64,000 nt of DNA from a candidate division WOR-3 bacterium. GTDB lineage: Bacteria > Hydrothermota > Tepidihabitantia > SM23-42. Under the pieces are notes generated by a model. The model had not been told where the DNA came from. It was given only the letters and a program-made list of their open reading frames with translations, and made no database searches. The stretch's first letter is position 1, and every line of letters starts with the position of its first letter. Shown piece after piece: positions 3,864 to 33,335 of this stretch. A program made the position numbers and the translations under genes. The stretch lies in the NCBI GenBank assembly GCA_020353055.1, contig CP070686.1, positions 1,056,625-1,120,624 on the forward strand, written 5' to 3'.

Positions 3864-6800
3864 TTTATCTTGAAGTGAAAATCCAGATCGACACTGGTGT
3901 TGAGGTTTTCCTGGTCGTACTGAGTAAATATAGAAATATGATCTGTAATATCGTAGCTGGCGCCTACCTGGTGCAACTCCCATGACTCAATACCGGTGCT
4001 GTAATACAGCGTAAAACCTCTGGTGATACGCTTCTCGATACCAACGCGCATTGTCGAAGGTTCATCCAGTTGTCCGGTTATCTGTAATTTATCCAGGCCC
4101 AGCAGTTGCTCACCTGATTTCTCAATTCCGTAACGAACTACGTCGAAAGCATAATCCTTTGCTTTGCCTTTGAGGTCGATTTCCTTGGCTGCACTGCCGA
4201 CTGCACCGGGCCGCCGCTGACCAATCAACAAGAGGCTCACTATATCTTGCTGAGGGAGTGGTGGATTTGAATTCAACTCAAGCTGCCATGTAGCAACCGT
4301 GCCATTGAGGACAAGGAATATTTCGTAATCACCATCGGCCGCCGCGATGGTCGAAGTGGCAACAAGGTCAATCACCGGGTCTATCTTGTACGGGTCATCA
4401 AACTGTATGACAGCAGTGACAATATTGAATTTCTTACCCAAATACTGAATCGTCCCCTGTCCGGTCGAGGTGATAGTGCCGTAGGCGTTCAGCCTTGAAA
4501 GATATCCTTTCAGCTGCAAGTCAGCCTTTGCCGAAAGATTGGCTACGTTGTTCGCAATTACTATACTGTCCGGCACCGAAATGCCAATATCACAGTAAAT
4601 CCTTTTCGAGATTTCGGGCTGCTGTGGTGCGGGCCGGTTCGCGGCGGTCAAAAGACCGACTATGTTCTGGAGCCGCATTGGAGCGTCATATACACCTTCG
4701 ATCAATATTATTTCACCACCGACACGCAGGGAATCCTTTCGGCTAGAAGCAAGTAGGGTTGCGTCGATCACAACGCGGCCGAAATCGTTATTGACATAAT
4801 CGACGTGGTCAACATCGACCTTGAGTAATACGGTGTCGAGCCGGCCACTTGCGAGATCGGCAAAACCATTTGCCCGGAATCGACCTTCATTTATCTTACC
4901 GTCAAGATCCTGGCAGGTAACTAAACCGTTTTTGAATACGAACGCACCGGACACCGAGTCGAATATCACATCCTTCATGGCATAACGCGCATTATGCAGC
5001 AAAAGGCTACCGTCAATATCGAGCCGTCGCGGTTTTCCCTGCACGCGAATATCAAATTTCAAATTACCGGTGACCGCTGGGTTTTTCGGCAAAAGATATG
5101 AAATATCAGCCAGTTGCAGGCTTGAGGATTTTGCCTTAATATCAAGGGATGCAGTTTCAAAATCGAGCGGTAGTACTCCCTCAACGTAGATAGTCTGGCC
5201 GGCTGCGGCAAATGCGCAAGATTGTATGTTGACCATTTCGTTTTCCAGATGCACGACCACCGGATCGACATTTTGTAGATTCTGACCTTCAAGCATCAAA
5301 TCGACCGCATGAATCCGAAGGGTAGCTTTCGTTTTAACGATTTCGGTAAGATATCCGACTGCCGAAAGATCAGCGGTCACGGCGCCGCTCGCTGGAGAAA
5401 TGAATTCATCGAGTACAAAGTTGTCGATTTCTGCATCGATACTAAAAGGGATGCGATCGTGCAGGAAGGCGTTGACATCGAACTTCACGTTCATGTCCTC
5501 ATTTGTCAACAGTAGCTGTAGTGCGGTATCACCAAGCGCGAATTTGAGATCATAGGTACCGAGTCGCATGGTGTCGTATACTACGTCCGCAAGTACAATC
5601 TCACCTTTGCCTTGCGGGTTGCGGATATCTCCTGAAAAAATGACGTCGAGGATTGCCGTGCCACCAAGCATGAGGGTATCGGCTCCAAATACCTCAGGCG
5701 AATCGAAGGCAAGCCGATCACTACGGAGTTCCAGCGTGAAATCGCGTTTTTTCAAATCATAGTACCCCGTAAGATTGACCAAGCCGCGACCACTCTGGAC
5801 GGTTCCCGAATCGAGACGAACCACCGTGTTGTTTATCGAAGCATGTAGTCTTGCGTTCGTAATGACTTCGCCGAAAGCCGTCGCATCCGAGAGCCCAAGG
5901 TCGGCCATCGCAACAGGATTCTCTGGTGAACCGGAAACCACCATGTCCAACCACAGTTCCCCAGAAATATTCTCCGCTGTCTCGACGATACTTTTCAGAA
6001 CATCCAGATTGCTGCAATACAAGGCAAGTCTCGTGTCGGTAATTTTTCTTGTCTTATTGTCGTACTGCAATCCTAGATCCATCGAAACTCTCCTGCTGGC
6101 GAGGTTGAAATGCGCAAGTTTCAGCTTACTATCGCCGTAGTATACTTGACCTTTGAATGAAGGTGTGAATCCCCTGTAATCGAATCGTCCAGCAACCGAA
6201 GCCTCGAATTCCGGCTCCGACACTTTACCCTTCAGTGTTCCGTCTGCCTGCATGTGTCCATAGCGGGACAGTATTTCAAGCGATAATCTCGTTCGCTCCA
6301 CCGCCGCCTTGACATCCCACGTGTCACGTCCTTCTATTCCCCTTTGCAATGTAGCCGTGGTTAATTTCATTGCGGCTTCGACATTCAGACCGTCGATCTT
6401 CGGCAGATGCCATGATGCATCTACCGAACCCTTAATTTCGTTGTCCACAAACCGTGCATCGACCTGACTTGCAGTACTTATCACCAGTGATGAGAACTCA
6501 CCCTGCACCGTACCCTTGCTGAGTAAACTACCCGACAGTTCACCAATACCCAGATCCTCGATCGCCAGGATGGCATCATAAACCACGTCAAGGACAACGC
6601 CCTTTCTCAGCGGGATCGATCCCCGCAAAAAAGCAGACGATTTTTCCGTAGATAAGTAAAGGCTGTCGACAACAAAAAGATCTTTCATCATCAGACCACG
6701 TGAAGCGAAATTTACACTCAACAAAGTCTGCCCGAGGTTAACGGTCAAACCGCCATCGACAATCGAATATGCTTCGATGCGTATGTTGACTGGTGATGAT

Positions 6801-7958: not shown

Positions 7959-9908
7959 ATGAAGATCGGTGTATATGTCTGCCACTGCGGCGGGAACATA
8001 TCCGAAGTCGTCGACATCAAGCAATTAACATCATTTGCCGAGAAGCAGTCAGACGTCGCAATCGTTCGAGACAATGCACATATGTGTTCTGATGTCGGCC
8101 GAAATCTCGTGCTGGAAGACATCAAAAAACACAATCTTGATAGAATTGTGGTGGCTGCCTGTTCGCCTCAATTTCATGGAAAGACTTTCATGGATATCGT
8201 AAAGAAGGCCGGCCTTTCACCCTATTTGTTCGAGATGGCTAATATCCGCGAACAGTGTTCTTGGCCACACTTTGACGAGCCCGAACTGGCGACCAGGAAG
8301 GCGAAAGACCTGGTGAACGTCGGAATTGCCAAGGTCAAACTTGACGAATCGTTGGAACGAAAAAGCATGCCCATCGGGAAGAGAGTACTCGTGGTTGGCG
8401 CCGGTATTGCAGGCATCCAGGCAGCGCTGGATCTCGGTGATGCCGGTTTCGAGGTTTTTCTCGTAGAGAAGAAACCCACGATCGGCGGGAAAATGGCACA
8501 ACTATCAAGGACGTTTCCAACCGAAGACTGTGCAGCATGTATCCTCTCTCCAAAGATGGCTGATGTTCCGAGCAATCCCAATATTACTTTATTCACTAAT
8601 TCAGAAGTGGAAAAAGTCTCTGGTTTTATCGGCAATTTTGAAGTAACAATTAACAAAAAACCCAGATACGTGAATGACAATTGTGTCTCCTGCGGTATCT
8701 GTGAAGAGAAATGTCCGGTGAAATTACCCAATGAATTCGAACAGGGGTTAACAACCCGCCGGGCGATCTACGTTCCGTTCGAATTTGCGGTACCGTACAA
8801 ATACGTCATCGACGAACCCAACTGCATCTATTTTCAGAAAGGCAAGTGCGGTAACTGTAAGAAGGTCTGCCCGCACGATGCGGTAGACTTCGAACAGAAA
8901 CCCGAAAAAATTGAAATCAAGGTAGACACCATAATCGTCGCGTCTGGCTATGATATCTTTGATGCCAGTGAGAAAAAAGTGTACGGCTTCGGCACGAACG
9001 AAAACGTCATCACCTCCCTGGAAATGGAACGCATGATCGTCCACGAAGCCGAAGGCCGCCCGACGAGAAAGATAGGCAATAGAATAGCATTCATCCAGTG
9101 TGTTGGTTCCCGGGACGAGCAAATCGGAAATGAATACTGCTCGAGGATCTGCTGCATGTATGCAACGAAGCTCTCGCAGCTCCTGAAGAGAACCGACCCG
9201 AAAAGGGATGTCTATGTCTTCTATACAGATCTACGTGCTTACGGTAAGGGTTTTGAAGAATATTACAAAAGAGCAGCACGGACCGGTGTCAAGTTCATTC
9301 GAGGAAGGGTCGCCGAATTGATCGAAGATCCCGAGACCAAAAAAGTGACCGTCAAAGTCGAAGATACCCTGGCACGCCAGATAATAGAATCAGAATTCGA
9401 CCTCGTCGTACTATCGGTGGGCATGCAGCCTGGCGAAGGAACTGGGAAAATCGCCGAGGTTCTGAGGATGACGCGAAGCCCCGGTGGCTTTCTCCAGGAG
9501 GCGCACCCGAAATTCAAACCGGTCGACACCCTCAACGACGGCGTGTTCATATGTGGCTGTGCGCAGGGACCCAAAGATATCCCTGACACCGTAGCACAGG
9601 CGAGTGCTGCTGCGGCGAGGGCGATAAGGCTGATGAATAAAGGTGAATATGAGGTCGAACCAATCACCGCGGTTGTCGACGAGGACCTCTGCAGTGGATG
9701 TGCAACCTGTGTAAGTGTCTGCCCGTACGATGCGGTGAAGACGGAAGTCAAGGATGACAAAAGGGTCGCCAAAGTGAACGAATTTCTTTGTCAAGGCTGT
9801 GGTTCCTGCTCGGCGGCTTGTCCTTCTGGAGCCTCACAGCAGCATTGGTTCATGAGTAGTCAATTAAAGGCCATGGTTGGCGCAGCATTAGGAGAGGAGG
9901 AAGAATGA
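7959..9908 (+). CDS. hdrA: Heterodisulfide reductase subunit A (HdrA), Cys form
   Basis: N-terminal VCHCGGNIS Cys cluster, FAD fold VLVVGAGIAGIQAALDL, FPTEDCAACILSPKM, several CxxCxxCxxxCP ferredoxin motifs. RBS AAGGAG. Confidence 0.85.
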   Translation: MKIGVYVCHCGGNISEVVDIKQLTSFAEKQSDVAIVRDNAHMCSDVGRNLVLEDIKKHNLDRIVVAACSPQFHGKTFMDIVKKAGLSPYLFEMANIREQCSWPHFDEPELATRKAKDLVNVGIAKVKLDESLERKSMPIGKRVLVVGAGIAGIQAALDLGDAGFEVFLVEKKPTIGGKMAQLSRTFPTEDCAACILSPKMADVPSNPNITLFTNSEVEKVSGFIGNFEVTINKKPRYVNDNCVSCGICEEKCPVKLPNEFEQGLTTRRAIYVPFEFAVPYKYVIDEPNCIYFQKGKCGNCKKVCPHDAVDFEQKPEKIEIKVDTIIVASGYDIFDASEKKVYGFGTNENVITSLEMERMIVHEAEGRPTRKIGNRIAFIQCVGSRDEQIGNEYCSRICCMYATKLSQLLKRTDPKRDVYVFYTDLRAYGKGFEEYYKRAARTGVKFIRGRVAELIEDPETKKVTVKVEDTLARQIIESEFDLVVLSVGMQPGEGTGKIAEVLRMTRSPGGFLQEAHPKFKPVDTLNDGVFICGCAQGPKDIPDTVAQASAAAARAIRLMNKGEYEVEPITAVVDEDLCSGCATCVSVCPYDAVKTEVKDDKRVAKVNEFLCQGCGSCSAACPSGASQQHWFMSSQLKAMVGAALGEEEE

Positions 9909-10342: not shown

Positions 10343-10743
10343 TCAAGAAGATCGAGATCTCACCCGAGAACGAGAAGTTCCTGAAAAAAGTCAATGAGCT
10401 CAGTGGGCAGGTCATCACTCTCTGCGAACAATGTGGTACTTGTTCGGGTGGTTGCCCCCTTGTCACTGAGATGGACATAACTCCGTCACAGATGATGAGA
10501 ATCGTCCAATTGGGTCAAAAAGAGGTTCTGGATTACAAGGCAATCTGGGTATGTGCTTCATGTTTCACCTGTACGGTCAGGTGCCCGCGCCAAATCGATG
10601 TATCCAAAGTGGCGGAAGCGCTGCGACAGATCATTCTGAGACAAGCCGTAGACCACATCGACATCAAAGCGATCCCTAAAGAGGAAATAGCCTGCCTTCC
10701 ACAAATCGCACTGGTAAGTGCGTGCCGTAAATTCACAGGATAG
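10339..10743 (+). CDS. hdrC: Heterodisulfide reductase subunit C (HdrC), two [4Fe-4S] clusters
   Basis: CEQCGTCSGGCP and CASCFTCTVRCP motifs; about 134 aa. Confidence 0.8.
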   Translation: MIKKIEISPENEKFLKKVNELSGQVITLCEQCGTCSGGCPLVTEMDITPSQMMRIVQLGQKEVLDYKAIWVCASCFTCTVRCPRQIDVSKVAEALRQIILRQAVDHIDIKAIPKEEIACLPQIALVSACRKFTG

Positions 10744-10753
10744 GAGGAAGAAT

Positions 10754-11695
10754 ATGAATACGACCAAAGAAACGAAATCAAAATCGGCGGAAAATATGAA
10801 ATTCCCCTACTACCCCGGATGTACACTAAAAACAACTGCCAAGAATTTCGAAACCTCAGCTATCGCCACGGCACGTGCACTCGGTGTGGAATTACTCGAG
10901 ATCCCGCGGTGGAACTGCTGCGGTACGGTATTCTCGCTTGCTCAAGACGATCTGATCCATCATGTGGCTTCGGTTCGGAATTTCATCAGGGTCCAGGAGA
11001 TGAATGACTATGGGTTGGTCAAGAACGAGAATCGTCTGGTGACTCTGTGTTCAATGTGCTTCAATACTCTGAAGAGCACAAATCGCCGCATGAAGGATAA
11101 TGCGGAAGATCTAAAAAAGATCAACGATCTCATGTATCGAGAGGAAGATTACAAGGGTAGTGTTGAAGTACTGCATTTCCTCGAACTCCTAAAATCGCTG
11201 GGCTACGACAAGATTCGGGATAAGGTAACCAAACCTCTGAAGGACCTGAAAATCGCGCCCTATTACGGCTGCATGATCTTGCGGCCCAAGGAGATAGCGA
11301 TAGACGACCCGGAAGATCCGACAATCCAAAAAGACCTTCTTGAAGCTCTCGGCGTGTCTGTCATTGATACACCGTATAAGAAGGTGTGTTGTGGAAGTTA
11401 TCAAACCGTCAAGGACAAGTATATAGTTGCTGAGTTGGCATATGACATACTCTCTCATGCGCGCAAAAAAGGCGCAGAGGCACTGACCACGGTCTGTCCC
11501 CTGTGCGCTTTCAATCTTGACCAACGCCAGCAGGCCGTAAAGGAAAAACATCCTGATTTCGAAGAAATGCCCGTCTTCTACATAACCCAATTAATGACCA
11601 TCGCCTTCGGTTTGAACAAAGAAGTATATGGTTTTGAACAGAATTACGTTGATCCAAAGCCGTTGCTCAAAAGCAAATCATTGATCGAAGATTAG
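10754..11695 (+). CDS. hdrB: Heterodisulfide reductase subunit B (HdrB), two CCG domains
   Basis: CCG-domain motifs (WNCCGTVF, KVCCGSY). AGGAGG RBS then ATG at 10754. Confidence 0.8.
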   Translation: MNTTKETKSKSAENMKFPYYPGCTLKTTAKNFETSAIATARALGVELLEIPRWNCCGTVFSLAQDDLIHHVASVRNFIRVQEMNDYGLVKNENRLVTLCSMCFNTLKSTNRRMKDNAEDLKKINDLMYREEDYKGSVEVLHFLELLKSLGYDKIRDKVTKPLKDLKIAPYYGCMILRPKEIAIDDPEDPTIQKDLLEALGVSVIDTPYKKVCCGSYQTVKDKYIVAELAYDILSHARKKGAEALTTVCPLCAFNLDQRQQAVKEKHPDFEEMPVFYITQLMTIAFGLNKEVYGFEQNYVDPKPLLKSKSLIED

Positions 11696-11706
11696 GAGAA
11701 CAAATA

Positions 11707-12465
11707 ATGGAAGATAATAAAAGCCCCATCATGGATAGAATTGCAGAGGCAAATAAGGCTGCGACGACAGGCATTGACGCGAAAGATATCAAGAACTGGA
11801 TCACGATTCACATCATGGGAAAAGCCTACAAGGTACCGGCCGACCTCACAATCCTGACGGCAATGGAGTATGCCGGCTACAAGTTTGTGAGAGGTGTTGG
11901 CTGCCGACAAGGCTTCTGCGGTGCCTGCGCTACTGTTTTCCGCAAGAAAGGAGATTACAAGCTGCAGACCGGCATGGCATGCCAGACCCGGGCCGAAGAC
12001 GGTATGTATCTTGTTCAAATACCTTTCACGCCTGCCGAAAAAGCAATTTATGACATAACGAAGGAACCTTACGAGGCCTCGATATTCATCAAATACTATC
12101 CGGAAGTAACAAGATGTGTATCATGCAATACCTGCACCAAAGCATGCCCGCAAGACCTGGAAGTCATGGATTACGTCCAAGCCGCAATACGCGGGGATTT
12201 CGACTCGCTGTCGGATGTTTCTTTTGACTGCATTCAGTGCGGCCTCTGTGCCATGCGGTGTCCTGCCGAGATTGTGCAATACCACGTCGCCCAACTTGGA
12301 AGAAGGATGTTCGGGCGTTACGGACAGGGAGTGCCGGACCACCTCAGGAAAAGGGTGAAAGAAATCACCGAGGGTAAATTCAACGAGGAAATGGATAAAA
12401 TTACCAGTTGCTCAACCGAGGAACTTCGAAAGATATACACCGAGCGCGAAAAAGAACCAGAATAA
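11707..12465 (+). CDS. Succinate dehydrogenase/fumarate reductase-type iron-sulfur subunit (SdhB/FrdB-like)
   Basis: Plant-type 2Fe-2S motif GCRQGFCGACA...C followed by CVSCNTCTKACP and CIQCGLCAMRCP. Confidence 0.7.
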   Translation: MEDNKSPIMDRIAEANKAATTGIDAKDIKNWITIHIMGKAYKVPADLTILTAMEYAGYKFVRGVGCRQGFCGACATVFRKKGDYKLQTGMACQTRAEDGMYLVQIPFTPAEKAIYDITKEPYEASIFIKYYPEVTRCVSCNTCTKACPQDLEVMDYVQAAIRGDFDSLSDVSFDCIQCGLCAMRCPAEIVQYHVAQLGRRMFGRYGQGVPDHLRKRVKEITEGKFNEEMDKITSCSTEELRKIYTEREKEPE

Positions 12466-12479
12466 GGAAGGAGCAAGAA

Positions 12480-14135
12480 ATGGCAGAATTAAAATATATT
12501 GAAGGCTACCCGGAAAATATCAGAAAAGAAATCGATAAGGTTGCCAAAACGCGCGATAAGAGAATTGATTACACTCCCCCTGCTATGACCATGAAAGAAC
12601 GCGACGAAGTCCTGCGAATTCACCCGGATTATGCCCCTGGAGGCAAGCGTGAAATTCAGGTCGGCCCTAACAAAGGTAACCTCGCGCCGAACGAAGTTGC
12701 CGATCTTCTTGAGGCATACCCTCTAATCGACCAGGATGAGGTGAATCTCTCCCAGGTTGATTACGACACTGATATTTTGATCATCGGCGGCGGCCTGGCT
12801 GGCACATCTGCAGCATTGTGGGCCAATGATAGTGGTATCGCTACCGAACGAATACTGTTGACGAACAAATTAAGACACGGTGATGCAAACTCGATAATGG
12901 CCGAAGGCGGCACGCAAGCGGCCGATCGTGAAGTCGATTCGATCACGAAACACTATATCGACACGATCGGTGGTGGACATTTCGAAAACAAACCCGATGT
13001 CGCCAGAGCATTGGTAGAAGATGCTCCGCTGATTATGAAATGGCTCTGCGAGTTGGGTGCAATCTTCGACCGTGAGGAAAACGGCGATCTTGCCGAAAAA
13101 CTCGCAGGCGGTATATCAGTGAAACGCATGCATTCGTGCCGTGACTACACGGGACTGGAAGAATTTAGAGTATTGAGGGATGAGTTCCGAACACGTGAAA
13201 TTCCTTATCTGGAACACTATCCGGCGATTGAGCTGCTAACCGACGGTGAACGTGTAACCGGCGCTGTCCTGTGGAATCTGGAAACCGGTGAGTACAAGAT
13301 AGTCAAAGCCAAGGCAACGATCATCGCCACCGGTGGTTATGGAAGATTACACATAAGAGGATTTCCCACAACAAATCACTACGGCGCAACTTTTGATGGC
13401 GTCGTTCTGTCTTATCGTGTGGGCGCCAAATTACGTGATATCGACGCAGTACAGTATCATCCAACCGGAGCTGCCTATCCAATCCAGATCGTAGGCTATC
13501 TGCTGACGGAAAAACTCCGAGGCAGCGGCGCGCAGCCGGTGAATGCAGACGGTGAAGCATTCGTTTACCCACTGGAGCCAAGAGATGTTGAAGCATCGGC
13601 GATTATCAGAGAATGCTATGTGCGTAACAAGGGTATCATCACGCCAACCGGGCTCCGCGGTGTCTGGCTCGATACACCCCTGATCGAAATCAAGAACGGC
13701 AAAGGATATATAGAGAAGGCTTTTCCTGGCATGATCAGAATGTACAAGCGGTACGACATCGACATACGCAAAGATCCTGTCTTGGTTTTCCCGACGCTTC
13801 ATTATCAGAACGGCGGTATCGAAACGGATCCCTCGGGCAGAACAAACGTCGACGGCCTGTGGGTCGCAGGTGAGGTATCAGGAGGTGTTCACGGTAAGAA
13901 CCGTTTGATGGGGAATTCCACTCTCGACTGTCTTGTATTCGGAAGACGCGCCGGCATGAGTACTGCAGAATACGTGAAATCGCATGGGGACGAGAGCAAG
14001 ATCAGTCTGGAACACGTGAAAAAATACGTCAAGAATCTTGAACAGGCTGGAGTGAAGCGTACCAGAAGAGCACCGATCATTCTACCTGATTATCGAGGCA
14101 AGGCAGCACTAGCTAGAATGATAGACGTATTCTGA
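12480..14135 (+). CDS. Sdh/Frd/L-aspartate-oxidase-family FAD flavoprotein (SdhA/FrdA-like). It has an N-terminal extension of about 110 aa.
   Basis: DILIIGGGLAGTSAA FAD fold, RHGDANSIMAEGG (His-Ser-x-AAQGG-like), YHPTG and LHYQNGG active-site-type motifs. GGAAGGAG RBS before ATG 12480. Confidence 0.7.
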   Translation: MAELKYIEGYPENIRKEIDKVAKTRDKRIDYTPPAMTMKERDEVLRIHPDYAPGGKREIQVGPNKGNLAPNEVADLLEAYPLIDQDEVNLSQVDYDTDILIIGGGLAGTSAALWANDSGIATERILLTNKLRHGDANSIMAEGGTQAADREVDSITKHYIDTIGGGHFENKPDVARALVEDAPLIMKWLCELGAIFDREENGDLAEKLAGGISVKRMHSCRDYTGLEEFRVLRDEFRTREIPYLEHYPAIELLTDGERVTGAVLWNLETGEYKIVKAKATIIATGGYGRLHIRGFPTTNHYGATFDGVVLSYRVGAKLRDIDAVQYHPTGAAYPIQIVGYLLTEKLRGSGAQPVNADGEAFVYPLEPRDVEASAIIRECYVRNKGIITPTGLRGVWLDTPLIEIKNGKGYIEKAFPGMIRMYKRYDIDIRKDPVLVFPTLHYQNGGIETDPSGRTNVDGLWVAGEVSGGVHGKNRLMGNSTLDCLVFGRRAGMSTAEYVKSHGDESKISLEHVKKYVKNLEQAGVKRTRRAPIILPDYRGKAALARMIDVF

Positions 14136-14224: not shown

Positions 14225-15430
14225 ATGAAAGCAGATAAGAGCGGCGTGTTAACCGGCTCTCATATTCTCAGCGGCAACGAGGCGTGCGCAGAAGGAGCCT
14301 TGGCAGCCGGCTGTCGTTTCTTGGGACTTTACCCTATTGTGCCTTCATTAGAGGTTTCGAAGAGATTCCTCCAGCGAGCGCCGGAAGTTGGCGCAACCTT
14401 TATCCAGATGGAAGATGAAGTGTCTGCCCTCGCTGCAGTTTTGGGCGCATCCTGGACCGGCAAAAAATCAATGACTGTAACATCAGGTCCGGGTTTCTCG
14501 CTCATGATGGAGCATCTCGGACTCGGCGTTATGTTGGAGACACCATGCGTGATCGTGGAAATCCAGATGGTCGGTCCGGGTCTTGGACTGCCGACCCGCC
14601 CCGCACAGGGAGATATCATGCAGTCCCGCTGGGGTTCTCATGGTGACTACGAGATAATCGCGTTCGCGCCTAGCTCGGCCCAGGAAATGTTTGACTTCAC
14701 TATCAAAGCATTCAATCTATCGGAACGTTATCGCGTTCCCGTCGCTCTCATGTCAGATGCATATGTCGCTCAACTAAAGGAAAAAGTCGCCATCCCTTCT
14801 GCCGACCAAATTAACATCGAACCGCGCCGATACTACGGTGGACCACGCGATAGTTACCTCCCATTCAAGAGGGATGAGGACTTTGTCCCGCCAATGGTGG
14901 ATATCGGGCAAGGCTACCGCTTTCACGTGACCGGTCTGACTCATGACGACCGGGGTTATCCAATCATGTTCGAAGAATGCCAGGAGTATAACGTTCACCC
15001 GCTGGTCAGAAAAATACGAGACTTCACTGACAAAATAATTGATATCGAGGAAAAGAATACCAATGATGCAGAAGTAGTTATTATTTCATACGGAGTGTCC
15101 TCGCGCGCTTCGCTCAAAGTGGTCGAACAGGCACGCAGCAAGGGACACAAGGTAGGCAGTCTAAAGCTGAACACGGTATGGCCATTCCCCGAAAAGAGAG
15201 TGGCCGAACTCGCAAGTCAGGTAAAGGCGTTTGTGGTCCCCGAGATGAACTTCGGTCAAGTAGTTCAAGAAGTGGAACGGAGCGCATATGGAAAAGCAAA
15301 TATCTTCTTTCTCACTCATGGCGATAACGGAGTTGAATATGCCGGAGATATCCTTGCCGCAGTTGAGGAAGCCTCTCAAATGAAAGAAACAAAATGTGGT
15401 ATCACTGAGTGGAAGAAACGGAGTGCATAA
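14225..15430 (+). CDS. korA: 2-oxoacid:ferredoxin oxidoreductase alpha subunit (KorA/PorA-like), copy 1
   Basis: Typical alpha-subunit sequence (GxYPIxPS ..., GPGFSLM, QSRWGSHGDYE). Note YPIVPS instead of the canonical YPITPS. Confidence 0.8.
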   Translation: MKADKSGVLTGSHILSGNEACAEGALAAGCRFLGLYPIVPSLEVSKRFLQRAPEVGATFIQMEDEVSALAAVLGASWTGKKSMTVTSGPGFSLMMEHLGLGVMLETPCVIVEIQMVGPGLGLPTRPAQGDIMQSRWGSHGDYEIIAFAPSSAQEMFDFTIKAFNLSERYRVPVALMSDAYVAQLKEKVAIPSADQINIEPRRYYGGPRDSYLPFKRDEDFVPPMVDIGQGYRFHVTGLTHDDRGYPIMFEECQEYNVHPLVRKIRDFTDKIIDIEEKNTNDAEVVIISYGVSSRASLKVVEQARSKGHKVGSLKLNTVWPFPEKRVAELASQVKAFVVPEMNFGQVVQEVERSAYGKANIFFLTHGDNGVEYAGDILAAVEEASQMKETKCGITEWKKRSA

Positions 15431-16308
15431 TGGCAACCCAGAAAGTTAATACAAACAAAGACATACATCCCATGGAAAACCTGCTCCGCATGGACCGGAT
15501 GCCACACATCTGGTGCCCGACCTGCGGAATCGGACTCGCCGTCACCGCATTCACCGCGGCTCTCGAAAAGGCAAATATCGATCCCAATATGGTGAGCATT
15601 GTCTCGGGAATTGGCTGCACTGGTAGAGTGGCTGGCTATGTGAAGGTCGATTCCTTTCACACGACACATGGCCGACCGATCGCTTTTGCCACGGGTATCA
15701 AAGTCGCAAATCCAAAGATGAAAGTCGTTGTGTTCTCGGGCGATGGTGACTTGATCGCGATCGGCGGAAATCATTTCATACATGCGGCGCGCCGCAATAT
15801 CGATATGCTGGTCGTCTGTGTTAACAACTTCATCTATGCAATGACCGGCGGTCAGGTGGCACCGACCACACCCCTGGCTGCCTATGCTACGACTTCACCG
15901 TACGGCTGTGTCGAACCACCCTTCAACATTCCTTATCTGGCTGACTCATCTGGCGCAGTATATGTAGCAAGATACACGGCATTGCACATCCGAAGGTTGA
16001 CCAATGCTTTGACTGAAGCCTTGAACAAAAAAGGATTTTCCGTCGTTGAGGTAATCTCACCGTGCGGCATGTATTATTCGCGAATCAACCGACTCGGCGA
16101 TGGACTCGAGATGATGAAATTCTATCATGATAATGTGGAAATAAAACACGGTGAAGACACGAAGAACCTGGAAATTGGATTTCAAAGCAAGATTATCTGC
16201 GGCAAGTTCGTTGACCGTGAAAGACCTTCCTACATGGAACGATACAATCAATGGCTTTCTGAAGTAAGAGCTTCAGCTAAGAATCCCGAAGGGAAAAAGG
16301 GAGCATAA
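15430..16308 (+). CDS. korB: 2-oxoacid:ferredoxin oxidoreductase beta subunit (KorB, TPP-binding), copy 1; canonical
   Basis: WCPTCGIG and GIGCTG Cys ligands, GDGD...NN TPP-Mg motif, TGGQ. TAATG overlap with the upstream gene. Confidence 0.8.
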   Translation: MATQKVNTNKDIHPMENLLRMDRMPHIWCPTCGIGLAVTAFTAALEKANIDPNMVSIVSGIGCTGRVAGYVKVDSFHTTHGRPIAFATGIKVANPKMKVVVFSGDGDLIAIGGNHFIHAARRNIDMLVVCVNNFIYAMTGGQVAPTTPLAAYATTSPYGCVEPPFNIPYLADSSGAVYVARYTALHIRRLTNALTEALNKKGFSVVEVISPCGMYYSRINRLGDGLEMMKFYHDNVEIKHGEDTKNLEIGFQSKIICGKFVDRERPSYMERYNQWLSEVRASAKNPEGKKGA

Positions 16309-16309
16309 C

Positions 16310-17551
16310 GTGAAAGCTGATCAAAAGAGCGTGCTGACCGGTGTCTACTACATAGATGGAGATGTTGCTGCGGGCTATGGTGCTCTGGCCGCGGGCTGTA
16401 AATTCGTGGCCGGTTATCCGATCACCCCATCAACGGAAGCATTTGAAGCAGTCTGCCACCGCGGACCAAAAGTCGGAACTGTGTTTATTCAGATGGAAGA
16501 TGAACTGGGTTCAATTTCGGCCATACTTGGCGCTGTGTGGTCAGGAGTCAAGACAATGACCATAACCTCTGGTCCCGGGTATTCGCTGATGCAAGAAGCA
16601 ATTGGCTTCGGAGCGATGCTCGAGACACCTTTTGTCCTGCTCAACATTCAGCGCGGCGGTCCCTCCACCGGTGTGCCGACCAAGACTGGTCAGGCAGACA
16701 TGATGCAGTCCCGGTGGGGCTCACACGGAGACTATGAGGTCATCGCCATTGCACCAGATTCGCCGCAGGAGATGTTCGATTATACGATCAAAGCGTTCAA
16801 TCTCGCCGAGAAGTACCGCTGCCCGGTCATGATAATGTCCGATGAATGCGTTGGTCATATGACCGAAAAAGTCGTTATCCCGGACGCTGACAAAATTTAC
16901 GTTGAACCAAGAAGATTCTATACCGGTCCGGCCGCGGATTACAGACCATACAAACCTGATCCAGACCTGGTGCCCAAAATGGCAAAGGCTGGCGAAGGGC
17001 TGAATCTGTACATAACCGGAATCGTTCATGACGAAAACGGATATCCAGTCAGTGATGAAAAATACAAGAGCATTTATGTAAAAAGATTAGTTGATAAGAT
17101 ACGGCTCAATAAAAACGAAATTATTGAATTGAAGGAAGAAGGAACAGACGGTGCAGATGTGATCGTTGTCTCCTATGGAATATCGTCGCGCGTCGCGGTC
17201 AAGGGTGTAGAAATGGCCAGACAAAAAGGTGTAAAGGTCGGAACGCTGCGGCTCGTTACGGTATGGCCATTTCCTGATGACCGAATCAATGAACTCGCGA
17301 AGAAAACAAAGGCCTTTGTCGTTCCGGAGATTAACTATGGACAAGTGGTTTACGACGTTGCCCGCTGCGCACACGGTCACGCCAGTGTTGTACTCGTTCC
17401 CCATGGAGGTGCTGGTGTACACAACCCCGATGACGTCGCCGATGCAATCGAATTCGCCGTCAAACAAGAGAAACCACTGGAAGGCGTTCATGAATTCAAA
17501 ACGAGGCTTGAGAAATCAGTGTTTGAGGGAGGGTTCAAATTAAAGGAATGA
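16310..17551 (+). CDS. 2-oxoacid:ferredoxin oxidoreductase alpha subunit, copy 2 (GTG start)
   Basis: Paralog of copy 1 with the canonical YPITPSTE motif. Confidence 0.8.
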   Translation: MKADQKSVLTGVYYIDGDVAAGYGALAAGCKFVAGYPITPSTEAFEAVCHRGPKVGTVFIQMEDELGSISAILGAVWSGVKTMTITSGPGYSLMQEAIGFGAMLETPFVLLNIQRGGPSTGVPTKTGQADMMQSRWGSHGDYEVIAIAPDSPQEMFDYTIKAFNLAEKYRCPVMIMSDECVGHMTEKVVIPDADKIYVEPRRFYTGPAADYRPYKPDPDLVPKMAKAGEGLNLYITGIVHDENGYPVSDEKYKSIYVKRLVDKIRLNKNEIIELKEEGTDGADVIVVSYGISSRVAVKGVEMARQKGVKVGTLRLVTVWPFPDDRINELAKKTKAFVVPEINYGQVVYDVARCAHGHASVVLVPHGGAGVHNPDDVADAIEFAVKQEKPLEGVHEFKTRLEKSVFEGGFKLKE

Positions 17552-18324
17552 ATTCAATAATCGAGGCAATTCATAAGGGCATTGAAAAATCCGGTGTCGA
17601 TCGGAAGAAAATCAGTATTCCATCCGACATACCTTTTGAGCCAGAGACGGTGAAATCGCTGGGAGTCGATTATTTCCAGGTACCACGCGGACGCGCAATA
17701 GCCTTTGGCTCAGGATTGAAATTAGGCAACCCGGATCTCAAAGTTATTCCGGTCGTCGGTGATCTCATGACACTCGGTGGAAATCATTTTGTACACGGAA
17801 CGAGAAGAAACATGGAACTCCTCGTTCTTTGTATCAATAATTTCGTCTACCATAAGATCGCCGGCAAATCAGTTTCAGTGGTGACTGAAGCATTCTCACC
17901 TTACTCTACGTTCGAAGAACCTTTCAATTTTCCCCACCTTGGTAATTCCTGCGGAGCAGTTTATACGGCACGATGGACGGCTTTGCACACAAGCGAACTC
18001 GCCGAGTCTATCGCCGAGGCGCTGCACAAACGTGGCATGTCGATGATCGAAATTCTGGCGCCCGGCCCCAGTTACTACAGATACATTACTCATCTCGACT
18101 CGGAACTGATGCAGTTCTATTTTGATAACTCAATTTTGAAGAACAACGAAGACCCTCGGAACGTGGCAATAACGGCAGACAAAAAAATAGTCGTCGGAAA
18201 ATTCACCGACAAGGAACGGCCAACCTTCATTGACTCATACAATACTCAACACAAGAAAATACTCGGTGATGAATTCACTCCTCATGGACCGGTTTTTGAC
18301 AAAGCAGGAGGTGGAAATGGCTGA
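17548..18324 (+). CDS. Degenerate beta-subunit paralog of 2-oxoacid:ferredoxin oxidoreductase. It lacks the Fe-S Cys ligands and the GDG TPP motif.
   Basis: Aligns to KorB copy 1 (GRAIAFGSGLKLGNPDLKV..LGGNHFVH..RRNMELLVLCINNFVY), but has VVGD for GDGD, no CxxC, KIAGKS for TGGQ, and APGPSYY for SPCGMYY. Confidence 0.65.
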   Translation: MNSIIEAIHKGIEKSGVDRKKISIPSDIPFEPETVKSLGVDYFQVPRGRAIAFGSGLKLGNPDLKVIPVVGDLMTLGGNHFVHGTRRNMELLVLCINNFVYHKIAGKSVSVVTEAFSPYSTFEEPFNFPHLGNSCGAVYTARWTALHTSELAESIAEALHKRGMSMIEILAPGPSYYRYITHLDSELMQFYFDNSILKNNEDPRNVAITADKKIVVGKFTDKERPTFIDSYNTQHKKILGDEFTPHGPVFDKAGGGNG

Positions 18325-18883
18325 AATTAGATTCGCCGGTTATGGGGGTCAAGGGATCATAAGATCCGGGATAATCGCCGGCAAAGCAGCGTCGATCTTC
18401 GATAGCAAGTATGCAACCATGAGTCAATCATTCGGGCCGGAAGCGCGTGGCGGTGCATGCAGCTCGCAGCTCGTCATATCCGAGAGCAAGGTCTTGTACC
18501 CGTACATCACAAATTCTGACGTCCTGATTGCCATGTCCCAGGCAGGGTATGATAAGTTTGAATCAGAAATGGGTGAAGAGGCAATGTTGTTGTACGATGA
18601 GGACCTCGTTAAACCCAAATCGTCACGCGGGAAAATCCTCGCCTACGCCATACCGGCAACACGGTTCGCTGAAGAATTGGGTATCAAGATCGTTGCGAAC
18701 GTTGTCATGCTTGGTTTTTTCACCGCCATTACCCATCTGGTCACCTATGAAAGCATGAAGAAGGCTCTGCCTGGCCTTGTCCCGGAGAAGGCATTGCCAC
18801 TGAACTTAAAAGCTTTCGAACGCGGTTATGAATATGGAAATGAGCTCTTAACCAAGAAACAATCAGATAAAGGAACGAAATAA
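18317..18883 (+). CDS. 2-oxoacid:ferredoxin oxidoreductase gamma subunit (KorC/PorG-like)
   Basis: MAEIRFAGYGGQGIIRSGIIAGKAA signature. AGGAGGTGG RBS before ATG 18317. Confidence 0.8.
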   Translation: MAEIRFAGYGGQGIIRSGIIAGKAASIFDSKYATMSQSFGPEARGGACSSQLVISESKVLYPYITNSDVLIAMSQAGYDKFESEMGEEAMLLYDEDLVKPKSSRGKILAYAIPATRFAEELGIKIVANVVMLGFFTAITHLVTYESMKKALPGLVPEKALPLNLKAFERGYEYGNELLTKKQSDKGTK

Positions 18884-18886
18884 ACT

Positions 18887-21800
18887 ATGCCAAAAGGAGC
18901 ACTCGTCATTGGTGGAGGTGTGGCTGGGGTTCAGTCCGCATTAGATTTGGCGAACGCTGGTTTCAAGGTTTTCCTTGTCGAGCGTGGCCCATGTTTGGGC
19001 GGTCGAACATCCCAGATTCACAAAATCTTCACCTCGATGGACTGTACGGGCTGAATCCTCGGCCCTAAACTAATGGATGTCGGTCGACATCCGAATATTG
19101 AGATTTTTGCCAACAGCGAAGTTGTTGGCGTCGAGGGTGAAGCACCGGATTTCAAAGTGAAGGTCAGGCGCAAATCCACATTTGTCGATTGGGACAAATG
19201 TACTGGCTGCGGGGAGTGTCCGACTGTCTGTCCGGTCCACATCAAAGATGAGTTTCAATTAGACCTTTCAAAACGAGAGGCAATTTATCGTCGGTATCCC
19301 CAAGCAGTGCCTAATAAATTTCTCATCGACAAAAGGGGCTCGCCGCCGTGTCGATACTCCTGTCCTGCAGGAGTCAATGCTCAGGGATATATCGCGCTCA
19401 TTTCACAGGGCAAATATAAAGAAGCTTTGGAACTTGAACGGAGAGACAACCCGTTCCCGGCGGTCTGCGGACGTGTCTGCACTCACCCTTGTGAATCAGA
19501 CTGCAAGCGAAAAGACGTGGACGAACCGCTGGCCATTGCCCAGCTCAAACGTTTCATTTCGGACAGTGAGCAGGAACTCTCAGCACCGAGCCCTGAATTG
19601 AACAAGGAGAAGGTTGCCGTCGTGGGCGCCGGCCCTGCAGGCCTTTCTGCCGCATATTTCCTTGCCAAGAGAGGATACTGCCCGACCGTCTTTGAAGCCA
19701 CTGACCATCCAGGCGGGCTGCTGTACTGGGCAATACCGAGATTCAGATTGCCGGAGATCGCGCTGCAGCGCGATCTGGATTACATAAAGAGTTGGGGTGT
19801 TGAGATCAAGACGGGTACTGCATTAGGCAAAGATCTTAGTATCAAAGACCTTCAACAGGATTACAAGGCGATCTTCCTCGGACTTGGCGCGGCCAAAGAA
19901 AAAACAATGGGCATAGAAGGCGAAGATCTGCAGGGCGTCTCTCTGTGTGTTGAATTTCTAAATAAGGCGGTCCACGATCCTGAGACGCCGGTAGGCAAAA
20001 GGGTCGCCGTGGTCGGCGGCGGTAATTCTGCAATAGATGCGGTGCGTACCGTGTTGCGTCTTGGCGCCGAAGAAGCATTCGTCGTATATCGCCGCTCACG
20101 CCAGGAGATGCCCGCAAACGAAGAAGAGATCGTCGAGGCGGAGAAAGAGGGAATCAAGATCCATTACCTGACCAATCCAACAAAGATATTTGGAGAAGAT
20201 GGCAAAATCAAGGGCATGGAATGCATCAAGATGAAACTGGGCGAACCTGATTCTTCAGGCCGAAGGAAACCAATACCCATCGAAGGTTCTGAATTCACCA
20301 TTAATCTGGATATGGTGATAATGGCGATCGGTCAGGCAGCCGATGTTTCATTCCTCACCAAAGAAGAAAAATTCGAGTTAACGCGCTGGGGAACCTTTGC
20401 CGTGGATCCAGACACCCTGCAAACGAACATCCCTGGTATCTTTGCCGGTGGTGATGCGGTGACCGGACCAGCCACAGTTATCGAGGCGATTGCTGCGGGG
20501 AAAGAAGCCGCAGAATCGATCGACCGCTTCATCAGAGGTGTCGATCTGAAAGCAGACAGAAAAAAGAAAGAAGATCGCGTCAAAGATGAAGATATCGAAA
20601 TCCCGGAAGAATTACAAACTGAGAAGAGAACGACGATGCCATTGCTGGATCTGGAAAAAGCGAAGAAGAGTTTCGAAGAAGTCGCCCAAGGATTCTCCGA
20701 AGAACAGGCTAAAAAAGAATCAGATCGATGCCTGAGCTGTGCAGGCTGCTCAGAATGTCTCGAATGCGTGAAGGTATGCGAACCAAATGCCATCGTGCAC
20801 GACATGGTGGACGAATTTGTGGACCTGGACGTGGGCTCGATCATCGTGACCACCGGTGTCGACTATCTCGATCCTAAAGAGGCAAGTGAATACGGATACA
20901 AACGCTTCAAGAATATCTATACATCTTTTGAAATTGAACGGATCATGAGCGAAGACGGCCCGAGTGCCGGCGAACTTCCCCTTGGCAAACAATTAAAGGA
21001 GCCGTTACGTTTCGCATTCATCCAATGCGTTGGATCGCGTAATATGCGCCATGACATCAACTATTGCAGCCGCATTTGTTGTATGAACACGATAAAAGAC
21101 AGTCTGGTCCTTAAAGAACACTACCCTGACGCAAATATTGTCGTATTCTATATTGACATTAGAGCCTTTGGAAAGGGATTTGAAGAATTTTATAATCGGT
21201 CCCTCGAAAAGGGTGTGAAATATATCAAGGGTAAACCATCAAAGGTGATTGAGGATGGCTCGGGAAATTTGGTTATTCATTATGAAAACGAACAGGGACA
21301 CTCAGGCCAAATGATATTCGATGCCGTATGTCTCTCTTCAGCGCTGATTCCGTCAAGGGGCTGCAGAGAATTGGCCGGCGTGCTCGGCGTCGATATCGAC
21401 GATGATGGTTTTTACAAAAACATGGAACCGGCAACCGCACCGCTTGAGTCAACGAAAAAAGGCGTTCTGGTATGCGGTTGCGCAACAGGTCCTAAGGACA
21501 TTACCGATTCGATCGCCGAGGCGAGCGGTGCCGCGGTTAAGGCAGCATGTTTCTTGGAGGGCCATGAACTGCCGGTCGAGAAAAAGGAAATCGAACAAGT
21601 CGATGTGTCCGGTCCACCGAGAGTCGGTGTCTTTGTCTGCCATTGCGGCCCGAATATTTCAAAGGTTGTCGATGTCAAAGGCGTAGTTGAATACGCGAAG
21701 ACTTTACCGGATGTGGTATTCGCCGAGGATTATACGTTCGCCTGTTCTGAAACAGCCCAACACCAGATTCAAGAGAGGATAGCCGAACACAAACTGAACA

Positions 21801-26382: not shown

Positions 26383-26475
26383 AACACTGTTTTGAAAATT
26401 CGAATTTTGGATTTGGATATTGTTTAGTATTTCGATATTCGATATTAGAATTTGAACAAAAAGGGGGTGATCAAG

Positions 26476-28935
26476 ATGCCGCAGGATGATTTGAAAATCG
26501 GCGTTTTTATTTGCGAATGTGGTACAAACATCGCTGGCTCAGTTGATGTCGACAGTGTCGTTGCGAACGCCAAGAAGACAGGTAATGTCGTGTACAGCAC
26601 GAAGAGCCGCTACATGTGTTCGGAACCCGGTCAGGCAGAAATAAAGAAGGCAATAAAAGAGGAGAAACTCGACAGGGTAATCATCGCAGCGTGTTCACCG
26701 CGTATGCACGAACCAACCTTCAGGGAATGTGTCGCCTCGGTCGGCATGAATCCATATCTGGTTGATATGGCAAATATCCGGGAGCAATGCTCATGGGTTC
26801 ATATGGGTAACCGTGAAGCAGCAACAAAGAAAGCTAAAGATATCATGAAGGCATACGTTGCGCGAGCACGATACCTGCAACCGCAGGAGGAAAAGGAAAT
26901 CCCGGTCGAAAGAGCAACATTGATAATCGGCGGTGGGATTGCTGGGATGCAGTCGGCACTCGACCTGGCCGACGCAGGTTACCAGGTATACCTCGTCGAG
27001 AAAGAACCGTCACTGGGTGGTTTGATGTCCAAACTGGCTAAGACATATCCTACCATGGATTGCGCGATATGAATACTCGGCCCGAAGATGATGGATGTCG
27101 GTCGACATCCCAATATCAAGCTTCTGACCAACAGCAAAGTCGAGGCGATAAAAGGCTATGTCGGCAACTTCGACGTTAAGGTACTCAAGAAGACGCGCTA
27201 TGTAGACGAAACTCAGTGTACCGCATGTGGTGATTGCGCCGAAGTGTGCCCGGTTGTCGTTCCGGATGCTTACCAGCAGGGGCTATCATCAAGAAAAGCT
27301 ATTTATATTCCATTCCCCCAGGCCGTGCCATCGGCATCTCTGATCGATATGGAAAGTTGTCTGGGCACCAATCCAATTGCCTGCGGCAAGTGCGCCGACA
27401 AGTGTGACAAGAAATGTATTGACTACGATGCAAAAGACGAAACGATCGAATTCAAGGTCGGTACCGTTATCGTGGCAACGGGTATGGATGTATTTGACCC
27501 GGTGATTCTGGAAGAATACGGTTATACAAAACACGAAAATGTTGTTACGAGCATGGAGTTTGAAAGATTGCTGTCTGCTGGAGGACCCTCTGACGGACAC
27601 TTCATCCGTCCGACCGACCGGCAGAGGCCAAAGACCGTCGGTTTTGTCCAATGCGTTGGTTCGCGCTGCGAAAAGATCGGCAAACCCTACTGTAGCAATA
27701 TCTGCTGCATGAACACGATCAAGGACACGCTACTATTGAAAGACCACTATCCCGACATACAGGCAAAGGTTTTCTACATCGACATCAGGGCTTTTGGTAA
27801 GGGTTTCGAGGATCTGTTCAAACGAAGCAAAGAGGCGGGTGTACAATACATCAGAGGTATTCCCGGAGAGATCACCGAAGACCCCAAGTCCCGTAATCTG
27901 AAGGTTATGGTCGAAGATACTACTTCTAACAAAATAGAAGAACATGAATTTGACATGATGGTTCTCTCTGTCGGAGTGACACCAAGATTAGATATGCCCG
28001 AGGTTCAACAATTACTGACGCTGTCAAAAACGCCCGACGGTTTCTTTATGGAAGCACACCCGAAACTCAAACCAGTGGATGCACCGTCTACCGGCATTTA
28101 TTTTGCAGGCTGTGCCGAGGCGCCGAAGGATGTTAAGGATTCGGTGACCCAGGCGAGCGCAGCAGCGGCCAGAGCCGAAACACTACTATCAGCAGGAAAG
28201 GTCAAATTGGAAGCGATCACGTCCACGCTGGACACTGCTCTATGCCGGTATTGTGCAACGTGTTCCAGGGTATGTCCTTATGGAGCCTTCACCGTTGACC
28301 CGAAAAAGAAAACGATTTCCTACATCGATGCCCTTTGCAAAGGTTGCGGCACATGTGCCGCCGAGTGCCGGTTTGGCGCACTGACAATGAAACACTTCAC
28401 CGATGAACAGATTGTAACTCAAATCGACGCCCATCTCGCCGAAGATCCTGGGGAAAAAGTAATCGTCTTTGCCTGTAACTGGTGTTCTTATGCAGGTGCC
28501 GATACCTGCGGTGGCGCACGGCTTCAGTATCCACCTAACCAGCGTTTGATCAGAACAATGTGTAGTGGCAGGGTAGATGAAAAATTCGTGCTGCATGCGT
28601 TCAGGAAAGGTGCCCCAATGGTTGTCGTATCCGGATGCCATTACGTCGACTGCCACTATATCGATGCGAACCGCTGGACCCAGAAGAGAGTCGAAAAACT
28701 TTGGGATAAATTCGAAAAATGGGGAATTAGACCCGAGAGATTGCTGCTCGAATGGATAAGTGCTGCAGAGGGACAACGGTTTCAAAAAACCATGCAGGAT
28801 ATCGAAGAACTGAGAAAGAAAGTAACAAAAGAAGAGATCGAACAAACAGTAAAGATCCTGACCGAAGAAGAAGAAAAAGATAAGGCAAAAGCTAAGAAGA
28901 AACAAGCTGACAGTCCAACAAAAAAGAAATCGTGA
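26476..28935 (+). CDS. hdrA: HdrA-MvhD fusion protein with an in-frame UGA (27070-27072) read as selenocysteine. The ORF track splits it into 26452-27072 and 27088-28935.
   Basis: GGGGGTGA RBS then ATG 26476. [51 protein letters not shown] (UGA at the Cys position of CAACIL). C-terminal FACNWCSYAGAD...GCHYVDCHY MvhD domain and a Lys-rich tail. Confidence 0.8.
27093..27110 (+). promoter_or_regulatory. Putative SECIS hairpin (GGATGTCGGTCGACATCC) 20 nt downstream of the UGA
   Basis: Identical to the hairpin after the HdrL UGA. Confidence 0.5.
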
Positions 28936-30225: not shown

Positions 30226-30254
30226 GAGGCCGCCCAAGAGGCGGCCTCTTTTCT
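30226..30254. terminator. Bidirectional rho-independent terminator (GAGGCCGCC-loop-GGCGGCCTC, T/A tracts on both sides)
   Basis: 9-bp GC-rich perfect stem between convergent genes. Confidence 0.6.
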
Positions 30255-33159: not shown

Positions 33160-33335
33160 AAATCCTCCTGTTTCTTGTATTTGTTTGTGGTCAAACAATC
33201 TGAAATTGTCCAAAAGAAGGGCCGCAAAATCTCCCCAGTATTCTATTATATACATTTCTCATGTAAAGTCAACACAGTTGACAACTTCTGGCCTGGTCTT
33301 ATACTGTTCCTTCGATAAGAAAGGGAGGAATCATC

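Follow-up and report, generated by a model that had tools for sequence, protein, structure and literature searches.

2-Oxoacid:ferredoxin oxidoreductases (OFORs) are among the oldest redox enzymes, driving the reductive tricarboxylic acid (TCA) cycle and anaerobic fermentations, and every OFOR characterised so far is, to our knowledge, symmetric, a dimer whose two active sites are equivalent; M. marinus OGOR (6N2N), for instance, is a dimer of like protomers. StOFOR of S. tokodaii and OOR (PMC5020499), as well as OorDABC of H. pylori (PMC12307629), are likewise described as dimers of like protomers, and the dimer interface of OorDABC is formed by its α and β subunits (PMC12307629). Here, an OFOR operon is analysed that appears to depart from this symmetry, located at positions 14225-18883 of a 64,000-nucleotide stretch from a candidate division WOR-3 bacterium (GenBank assembly GCA_020353055.1, contig CP070686.1, positions 1,056,625 to 1,120,624 of the forward strand), hereafter called the window, in whose coordinates positions are given. 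The operon probably encodes an obligate mixed core, (α-β)(α'-β'), with one live active site, as judged from the way in which catalytic elements are conserved and lost among its subunits.

The two- to four-subunit enzymes of known structure that come closest, StOFOR1/2 (5B46-5B48), M. marinus OGOR and H. pylori OorDABC (8YS5), belong to the same subunit families and share the subunit scheme of this operon, in which α comprises domains I and II, β domain VI, and γ domain III; the cofactor motifs of α copy 2 and β copy 1 are those of the solved enzymes, and a dimeric core made of α and β subunits is expected here as in StOFOR and OorDABC. Unlike these symmetric enzymes, which have identical protomers and two cofactor sites, the locus encodes two α and two β subunits, one of each being degenerate, and it contains no δ ferredoxin gene. 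Five-gene OFOR operons are known from Aquificae, namely ForDABGE of Hydrogenobacter and Aquifex (PMC10052474); however, the extra subunits of those five-subunit OGOR/POR enzymes are a δ that resembles the ε subunit of carbon monoxide dehydrogenase and a ferredoxin-like ε, whereas here degenerate copies of α and β bring the number of genes to five. Reductive TCA clusters of tubeworm symbionts and Thioflavicoccus mobilis intersperse korABCD, tfrAB, and flxABCD-hdrABC, and a complex that would deliver electrons straight to OGOR and Tfr has been proposed for them (Rubin-Blum et al. 2019, PMC6315080). The present locus resembles these clusters in placing an OFOR beside thiol:fumarate-reductase-like and HdrA-type genes, and its kor-tfr-hdr context is of a known kind; yet the symbiont OGOR is a canonical KorABCD, whereas here a predicted pseudo-protomer appears, δ is missing, and one operon includes a GltD/HdrA fusion with a probable selenocysteine (Sec). 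Beyond the OFORs, prozyme-type heteromers such as the T. brucei PRMT1 ENZ-PRO tetramer and the MetCaCb metformin hydrolase offer the likeness of a dead paralogue under selection as a presumed obligate partner; the present case differs from them in enzyme family, in that two chains, α' and β', would form a whole dead protomer, and in that completion of the live site in trans is read from evolutionary evidence. Full-text literature searches, which left out most subscription journals, turned up no account of an OFOR with a duplicated, degenerate protomer, and PDB sequence searches with both α and both β subunits returned canonical OFORs only, in agreement with an earlier examination of the window (the sequence-only reading), whose author was not aware of such an arrangement.

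According to the list of open reading frames (ORFs) in the window, five tightly coupled ORFs on the + strand in 14225-18883 constitute one OFOR gene set. The first gene, at 14225-15430, encodes the degenerate α copy 1 (α', 401 residues, with domains I and II intact; Pfam POR_N, E 2.6e-56, and PFOR_II, E 4.9e-21) and is followed by the catalytic β copy 1 (β) at 15430-16308 (longer ORF from a GTG at 15409; TPP_enzyme_C, E 1.6e-32). The catalytic α copy 2 (α, 413 residues; POR_N, E 2.1e-64, and PFOR_II, E 5.4e-20) lies at 16310-17551, the degenerate β copy 2 (β', 258 residues; TPP_enzyme_C, E 2.5e-14) at 17548-18324, and the single γ subunit (POR, E 7.9e-32) at 18317-18883, all on the + strand. 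The sequence-only reading had correctly recognised five OFOR genes at these positions but had labelled their order α-β-α'-β'-γ; since the deviant α is copy 1, the order is α'-β-α-β'-γ, and the degenerate genes are the first and the fourth, not adjacent ones. Start and stop codons overlap or abut all along the operon: the stop of α' and the ATG of β share the TAATG at 15430, the GTG start of α lies 2 nucleotides past the β stop, α and β' meet in an ATGA overlap, and β' and γ overlap by 8 nucleotides. By these junctions, α' and β' are translationally coupled with their neighbours. The two α copies are 53% identical over a gapless alignment, and the two β copies are 40% identical.

The division into catalytic and degenerate copies begins with the cofactor and cluster motifs. 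β aligns over its full length with H. pylori OorB, the StOFOR1/2 β subunits, and M. marinus OGOR β and retains GDGD, the NN pair, and TGGQ; its Cys36, Cys39, Cys70, and Cys219 (numbering of the GTG-initiated ORF) align with OorB Cys19/22/53/202, which are the ligands of the proximal cluster in the cryo-electron microscopy structure of OorDABC (PMC12307629). The sequence-only reading had likewise ascribed the hallmarks of the family to this copy. β' starts approximately 40 residues later than β, whereby the CxxC region is gone, and with DIPF replacing GIGC and APGP replacing SPCG all four [4Fe-4S] cysteines are missing; in addition, a two-residue deletion shortens GDGD to GD, and IAGK stands in place of TGGQ. 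The losses agree across BLASTP, phmmer against four solved OFOR β subunits, and a 122-sequence MAFFT alignment. Motifs that are merely shifted, an outcome that the sequence-only reading had allowed for, are ruled out, because all three methods show the residues to be absent. A search with β' returned 264 proteins at E ≤ 1e-10, the best 120 of which were analysed (62-100% identical, 218-274 residues); the four cysteines are absent and the GDGD-to-GD deletion is present in every aligned sequence of this set.

The corresponding losses in α' concern substrate binding. α' reads YPIVPS, with Val39 (nucleotides 14339-14341) at the position of the substrate-binding Thr, and QMVGPGLG, with Met115 (nucleotides 14567-14569) at that of the substrate-binding Arg, in contrast to the YPITPS and QRGGPSTG of α and the solved enzymes; the sequence-only reading had noted the first difference and missed the second. 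By alignment, these positions are those of StOFOR1 Thr256a and Arg344a, which hold the substrate carboxylate and whose single mutants show zero activity or a strongly decreased kcat (PMC5020499). YPITPST and QRGGPSTGVPTKTGQ are invariant among the α orthologues. In the best 120 α' homologues, a YPITP-type motif was located in 117, and its Thr is replaced in 116 of these by V, M, Q, E, A, I, R, K, or P, while the substrate Arg is retained in fewer than half of the 120; so many different replacements indicate relaxed constraint and not a new specificity. By its residues, the α'-β' protomer is unable to bind a [4Fe-4S] cluster and almost certainly has neither the cofactor-Mg site nor the substrate site. 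Three cysteines of α', namely Cys21 (14285-14287), Cys108 (14546-14548), and Cys252 (14978-14980), are invariant across α' orthologues, and their counterparts in α are Ala/Ser, Phe, and Tyr/Phe/Glu, respectively; Cys252 sits inside the hyper-conserved, α'-specific loop EECQEYNVH. A new metal site made from them is not claimed, Cys21 and Cys108 being more likely part of the packing of the domain core.

Despite these losses, the degenerate copies are maintained. A scan that took one genome per species covered 49 loci from WOR-3, Stahlbacteria, KSB1, Cloacimonadota, and a few other bins, and the full five-gene order is intact in 39 of them; related genomes thus conserve the degenerate copies, as the sequence-only reading had proposed to check. 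The other ten comprise seven loci cut by contig ends, one with a scaffold gap (L007), one with a split β' (L038), and one that is an unrelated canonical operon (L049). Against the closest relative, the ratio of nonsynonymous to synonymous substitution rates (dN/dS) is 0.063 for α', 0.030 for β, 0.039 for α, 0.055 for β', and 0.034 for γ, which makes β the most conserved of the five genes and places α' and β' under strong purifying selection. α' and β' hence combine missing catalytic and cofactor residues with purifying selection, as is characteristic of pseudoenzymes.

What selection has retained in α' can be deduced from column entropies over 42 loci with both α copies, expressed as entropy relative to each family's own mean and compared with a control, i.e., a canonical α family of similar divergence (n = 107) from an ordinary α-β-γ operon that lies upstream in Cloacimonadota. 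Two segments that act within their own protomer, 36-46 (YPITPST) and 112-130 (QRGGPSTGVPTKTGQ), have relative entropies of 1.23 and 1.25 in α', as opposed to 0.18 and 0.30 in α and 0.17 and 0.46 in the control. The pattern is reversed for segment 231-244, which reaches the other protomer, with relative entropies of 0.26 in α', 1.43 in α, and 0.61 in the control; its control consensus, YRFHVTGLAHDSKG, resembles that of α', YRFHVTGLTHDDRG, whereas α has diverged to LNLYITGIVHDENG. Over 231-260 (YRFHVTGLTHDDRGYPIMFEECQEYNVHPL in α', nucleotides 14915-15004 on the + strand), the mean entropy is 0.30 bits for α', 1.27 for α, and 0.85 for the control, and the 16 residues after 244 in α' (YPIMFEECQEYNVHPL) give 0.44, versus 1.52 in the control and 2.65 in α. 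The α' segment 231-260 aligns with the StOFOR1 region around Asp468a', and 231-244 with the very stretch that holds this residue, which is contributed by the other protomer and is required for 2-oxoglutarate turnover (PMC5020499). A chain of a homodimer must keep both its cis and its trans elements, and the control family does so; the two α subunits of the operon instead divide them, which points to a single live site with α and β acting in cis and α' in trans. Relaxation extends in α' to the domain II segments 288-301 and 359-373, a region that helps to bind coenzyme A (CoA) in other OFORs; should the same role hold here, the dead protomer may have lost its CoA site as well.

A similar, weaker argument applies to the β subunits. 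In β', the relaxed loops are those of the cluster, of TGGQ (with its flanking loop the most variable part), and after SPC, while the C-terminal tail (K.LGDxFTP.G...GG.NG) is conserved more strongly than in β, and the β C-terminus reaches over the other protomer in StOFOR (PMC5020499). The nearest canonical β subunits, P0121 and P0122, bear a similar LGDxYxP tail, which β copy 1 has replaced. The argument from the β' tail is weaker than that from the α' segment, because a canonical control family is lacking for the tails.

From these patterns, an enzyme with one live and one dead protomer can be proposed. The live protomer would consist of α (copy 2) and β (copy 1), with thiamine diphosphate, one [4Fe-4S] cluster, and the substrate Thr and Arg, whereas α' and β' would form a dead protomer that keeps the fold and the dimer interface and thereby maintains the obligatory dimer. 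The dead protomer would still be needed because OFOR active sites are completed by elements of the opposite protomer: α' 231-260, and probably also the C-terminal tail of β', would complete the single live pocket in trans. Electrons would probably leave from the sole remaining cluster to ferredoxin or to the co-transcribed HdrA-like flavoprotein. The heteromeric core with a non-catalytic protomer advanced in the sequence-only reading thus agrees with the reciprocal conservation, but its dead protomer, the adjacent second pair, does not; the predicted dead protomer unites α copy 1 with β copy 2. Most likely, a single tandem duplication of α-β would have given rise to the arrangement, and complementary losses would then have tied the two pairs to each other. 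A neighbor-joining (NJ) tree shows α and α' each as monophyletic, as sister groups, and with similar internal topology, which fits a single ancestral duplication. In a profile search of 1.84 billion representatives, the β' family forms one tight cluster at 480 bits, and the next match, at 264 bits, is a canonical β resembling β copy 1, the best profile match of β' thus falling in the β copy 1-like clade; the NJ tree of β subunits groups β' with other degenerate β subunits, for which long-branch attraction is the likely cause and from which ancestry is not concluded.

Several points weigh against such an asymmetric core. The QMEDE motif, including the cofactor-activating Glu, stays invariant in α', and one Gly-Asp and the NN pair are still present in β', leaving room for residual cofactor binding. 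The tail of β' was compared with that of β copy 1 only, and canonical β tails vary widely; furthermore, the sequences compared come from related metagenome-assembled genomes (MAGs) and are not independent samples. The single γ gene renders the stoichiometry ambiguous, γ presumably serving at least the live protomer. The AlphaFold2 monomer of β' is poor, with a mean predicted local distance difference test (pLDDT) score of 69 and with conserved segments 74-84 and 116-147 below 50; the folds nearest to this low-confidence model are OFOR β subunits, so the model suggests that β' has an OFOR β fold. Finally, the physical assembly of (α-β) with (α'-β') is itself inferred from sequence evolution.

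The alternative that withstands the evidence best, though it appears unlikely, involves two particles, in which a homodimeric (α, β, γ)2 carries out catalysis and α'-β' is a non-catalytic scaffold or adaptor, e.g., for an HdrA-like complex. An OFOR-derived module can apparently stand apart, as α-less degenerate β-like proteins exist near HdrA, MvhD, and ferredoxin genes, and the HdrA-like gene of the window begins 4 nucleotides past γ. In a homodimer, however, the trans segment of α would line the live site, yet it is diverged and relaxed where the control conserves it, whereas α' retains the canonical sequence there; moreover, α' and β' never occur apart from α and β in the 39 complete loci. 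Quite improbable is a pseudo-protomer that binds thiamine diphosphate and serves a regulatory role or non-oxidative decarboxylation without an Fe-S cluster. The activating Glu of α' and the Gly-Asp and NN of β' are compatible with it, and the four cysteines of StOFOR1 were dispensable for non-oxidative decarboxylation, according to Yan et al. 2014 as cited in PMC5020499; nevertheless, the two-residue GDG deletion occurs in every homologue among the best 120 of 264, TGGQ with its flanking loop is the variability maximum of β', and the Thr and Arg positions of α' are hypervariable instead of being re-fixed.

Pairing by adjacency, in which α copy 1 and β copy 1 would form an OFOR of new specificity and α copy 2 and β copy 2 something else, is less probable still. 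Gene order is its sole support, along with the precedent of oxalate oxidoreductase (YPIRP), which is functional despite the replaced Thr of YPITP; but α copy 1 has no fixed residue in place of this Thr, most of its members have lost the essential Arg too, and the perfect substrate site of α copy 2 would be useless next to a β without a cofactor site. That α copy 1 and β copy 2 are functionless, decaying pseudogenes, as the sequence-only reading had considered for the second pair, is hardly credible and effectively refuted, since their nonsynonymous rates, although approximately 1.6-2 times those of the catalytic paralogues, correspond to a dN/dS of about 0.06, their ORFs are intact in 39 genomes from several phyla with β' split in one relative (L038), the genes are translationally coupled, and α' 231-260 is more conserved than α or the control, as is the β' tail relative to β.

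By every sequence criterion, α, β, and γ constitute an OFOR, and α' and β' fail the catalytic criteria; the substrate is probably 2-oxoglutarate, which is a guess from gene context because the curated cutoffs specific for 2-oxoglutarate are not reached. Both α copies pass the cutoff of 411 bits of NCBIfam model NF006412 (501.7 for α' and 507.9 for α), and γ scores 188.7 bits on NF006323, under the cutoff of 235. On the 2-oxoglutarate models of NCBIfam, β scores 250.2 bits against a cutoff of 364 (NF007207), and the two α copies score 336 and 340 bits against a cutoff of 579 (NF007206). The database annotation of the genes as 2-oxoglutarate enzymes is automatic, and current records list α' and β' as ordinary korA and korB genes. 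The context consists of Tfr-like genes upstream, ATP-citrate lyase beside the nearest canonical relative, and genes of histidine-to-glutamate catabolism in the window.

If confirmed, a natural OFOR in which one of the two sites is live and the other dead would be a ready-made test case for a long-running question, namely whether the two sites of thiamine-diphosphate enzymes communicate (half-of-the-sites, alternating-sites, or "proton wire" behaviour). In addition, bacteria would thereby offer a clear case in which complementary losses fixed a duplicated enzyme as an obligate heteromer. Because of the korA and korB annotation of α' and β', two enzymes may be counted for one when the metabolism of WOR-3, Stahlbacteria, KSB1, and Cloacimonadota is reconstructed. 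The asymmetry would be either adaptive (e.g., one-exit wiring to an HdrA-type partner) or neutral, and the link to an HdrA-type gene for a probable selenoprotein provides a testable route of low-potential electrons to or from the enzyme.

This gene opens with an ATG at 18887, 4 nucleotides past the γ stop, and its frame runs on the + strand to 23284 through an in-frame TGA at 19052-19054 within the motif DCTG-U-ILGPKL; the product, of approximately 1465 residues, is a GltD-like NAD(P)H module fused with HdrA2-like domains. A second HdrA-like gene, at 26452-28935, is fused to MvhD and contains an in-frame TGA at 27070-27072 in DCAI-U-ILGPKM; 11 related loci share this TGA, and a stable hairpin comes after it. 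Both products are probably selenoproteins in which TGA encodes selenocysteine; the TGA position presumably matches a Cys of HdrA in a DCxxC-ILxPK motif. ORF callers split or truncate both genes. Between them lie MvhD, HdrC-like, and HdrB-like genes, and upstream of the OFOR operon an HdrA2-like gene accompanies genes for an HdrB/SdhE-like CCG protein, an Fe-S protein, and a TfrA-like flavoprotein (10718-14135, + strand) that look like a thiol:fumarate-reductase-type module. Among the related loci, an HdrA-like or HdrB-like gene follows γ in 30 of the 37 with sufficient downstream sequence, and the upstream thiol:fumarate-reductase-type module is found in 11 of 33.

Given these neighbours, it is conceivable, though doubtful, that the dead protomer is a docking face for the Sec-containing GltD/HdrA-type flavoprotein and for MvhD and HdrBC partners, making the OFOR an arm of a ferredoxin-independent, flavin-based electron-bifurcating supercomplex. 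Electrons from NAD(P)H would then be split between thiol:fumarate reductase (downhill) and the OFOR cluster (uphill, for 2-oxoglutarate synthesis), or the reverse would take place. If this were true, asymmetric one-exit wiring would have come at the cost of one site and one cluster, and the α-less OFOR-β-derived proteins beside HdrA genes would be reduced versions of the same adaptor. Such α-less, degenerate OFOR-β-like proteins occur next to HdrA, MvhD (FlpD), and small ferredoxin genes in loci L050 (6001-6858), L051 (4389-5966), L053 (1487-2712), and L055 (6001-6870), with a tandem pair of β-like genes in L051. In P0124, P0130, and P0202, the cysteines and GDG are both lost, and in P0224, P0148, P0200, P0208, and P0252, the four cysteines are kept and GDG and TGGQ are lost, suggesting that Hdr-type complexes have taken up OFOR β more than once as a non-thiamine module.

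Related loci yield further observations. P0122, the canonical β most closely related to β copy 1, has approximately 120 further residues, rich in Lys and Ala, at its C-terminus and is encoded in locus L057 (705-8925). There, an α-β-γ operon continues with genes for HdrA, MvhD, two Fer4 proteins, an NAD_binding_1 protein, and ATP-citrate lyase, so that OFOR and HdrA are linked in the absence of the duplication as well, in a reductive-TCA-like context. In Cloacimonadota, an ordinary α-β-γ OFOR stands directly upstream of the α'-β-α-β'-γ operon (L026, 3001-5589; L027, 2601-5189; L030, 1-2019; L031, 2971-5577), with 33-45% identity. In the Stahlbacteria MAG of L038, β' is split into two ORFs (2467-4288) and α', β, and α are absent upstream, where small, unidentified, unrelated ORFs are found, while γ and then a δ-like 2x[4Fe-4S] ferredoxin follow downstream; the locus reflects either decay of the copy or an error of assembly. 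L007 (CP070795.1), a MAG deposited as a complete chromosome, has a gap of 100 N within α (9304-9403), and α' and β are missing upstream; it is likely a misjoin and was handled as an assembly problem. In the window itself, 30254-33255, 37593-39116, and 44743-46425 hold genes for a class-III aminotransferase, an aldehyde dehydrogenase, and histidine ammonia-lyase-type and urocanase proteins, which suggest amino-acid catabolism feeding glutamate and 2-oxoglutarate and bear on the physiological direction of the OFOR.

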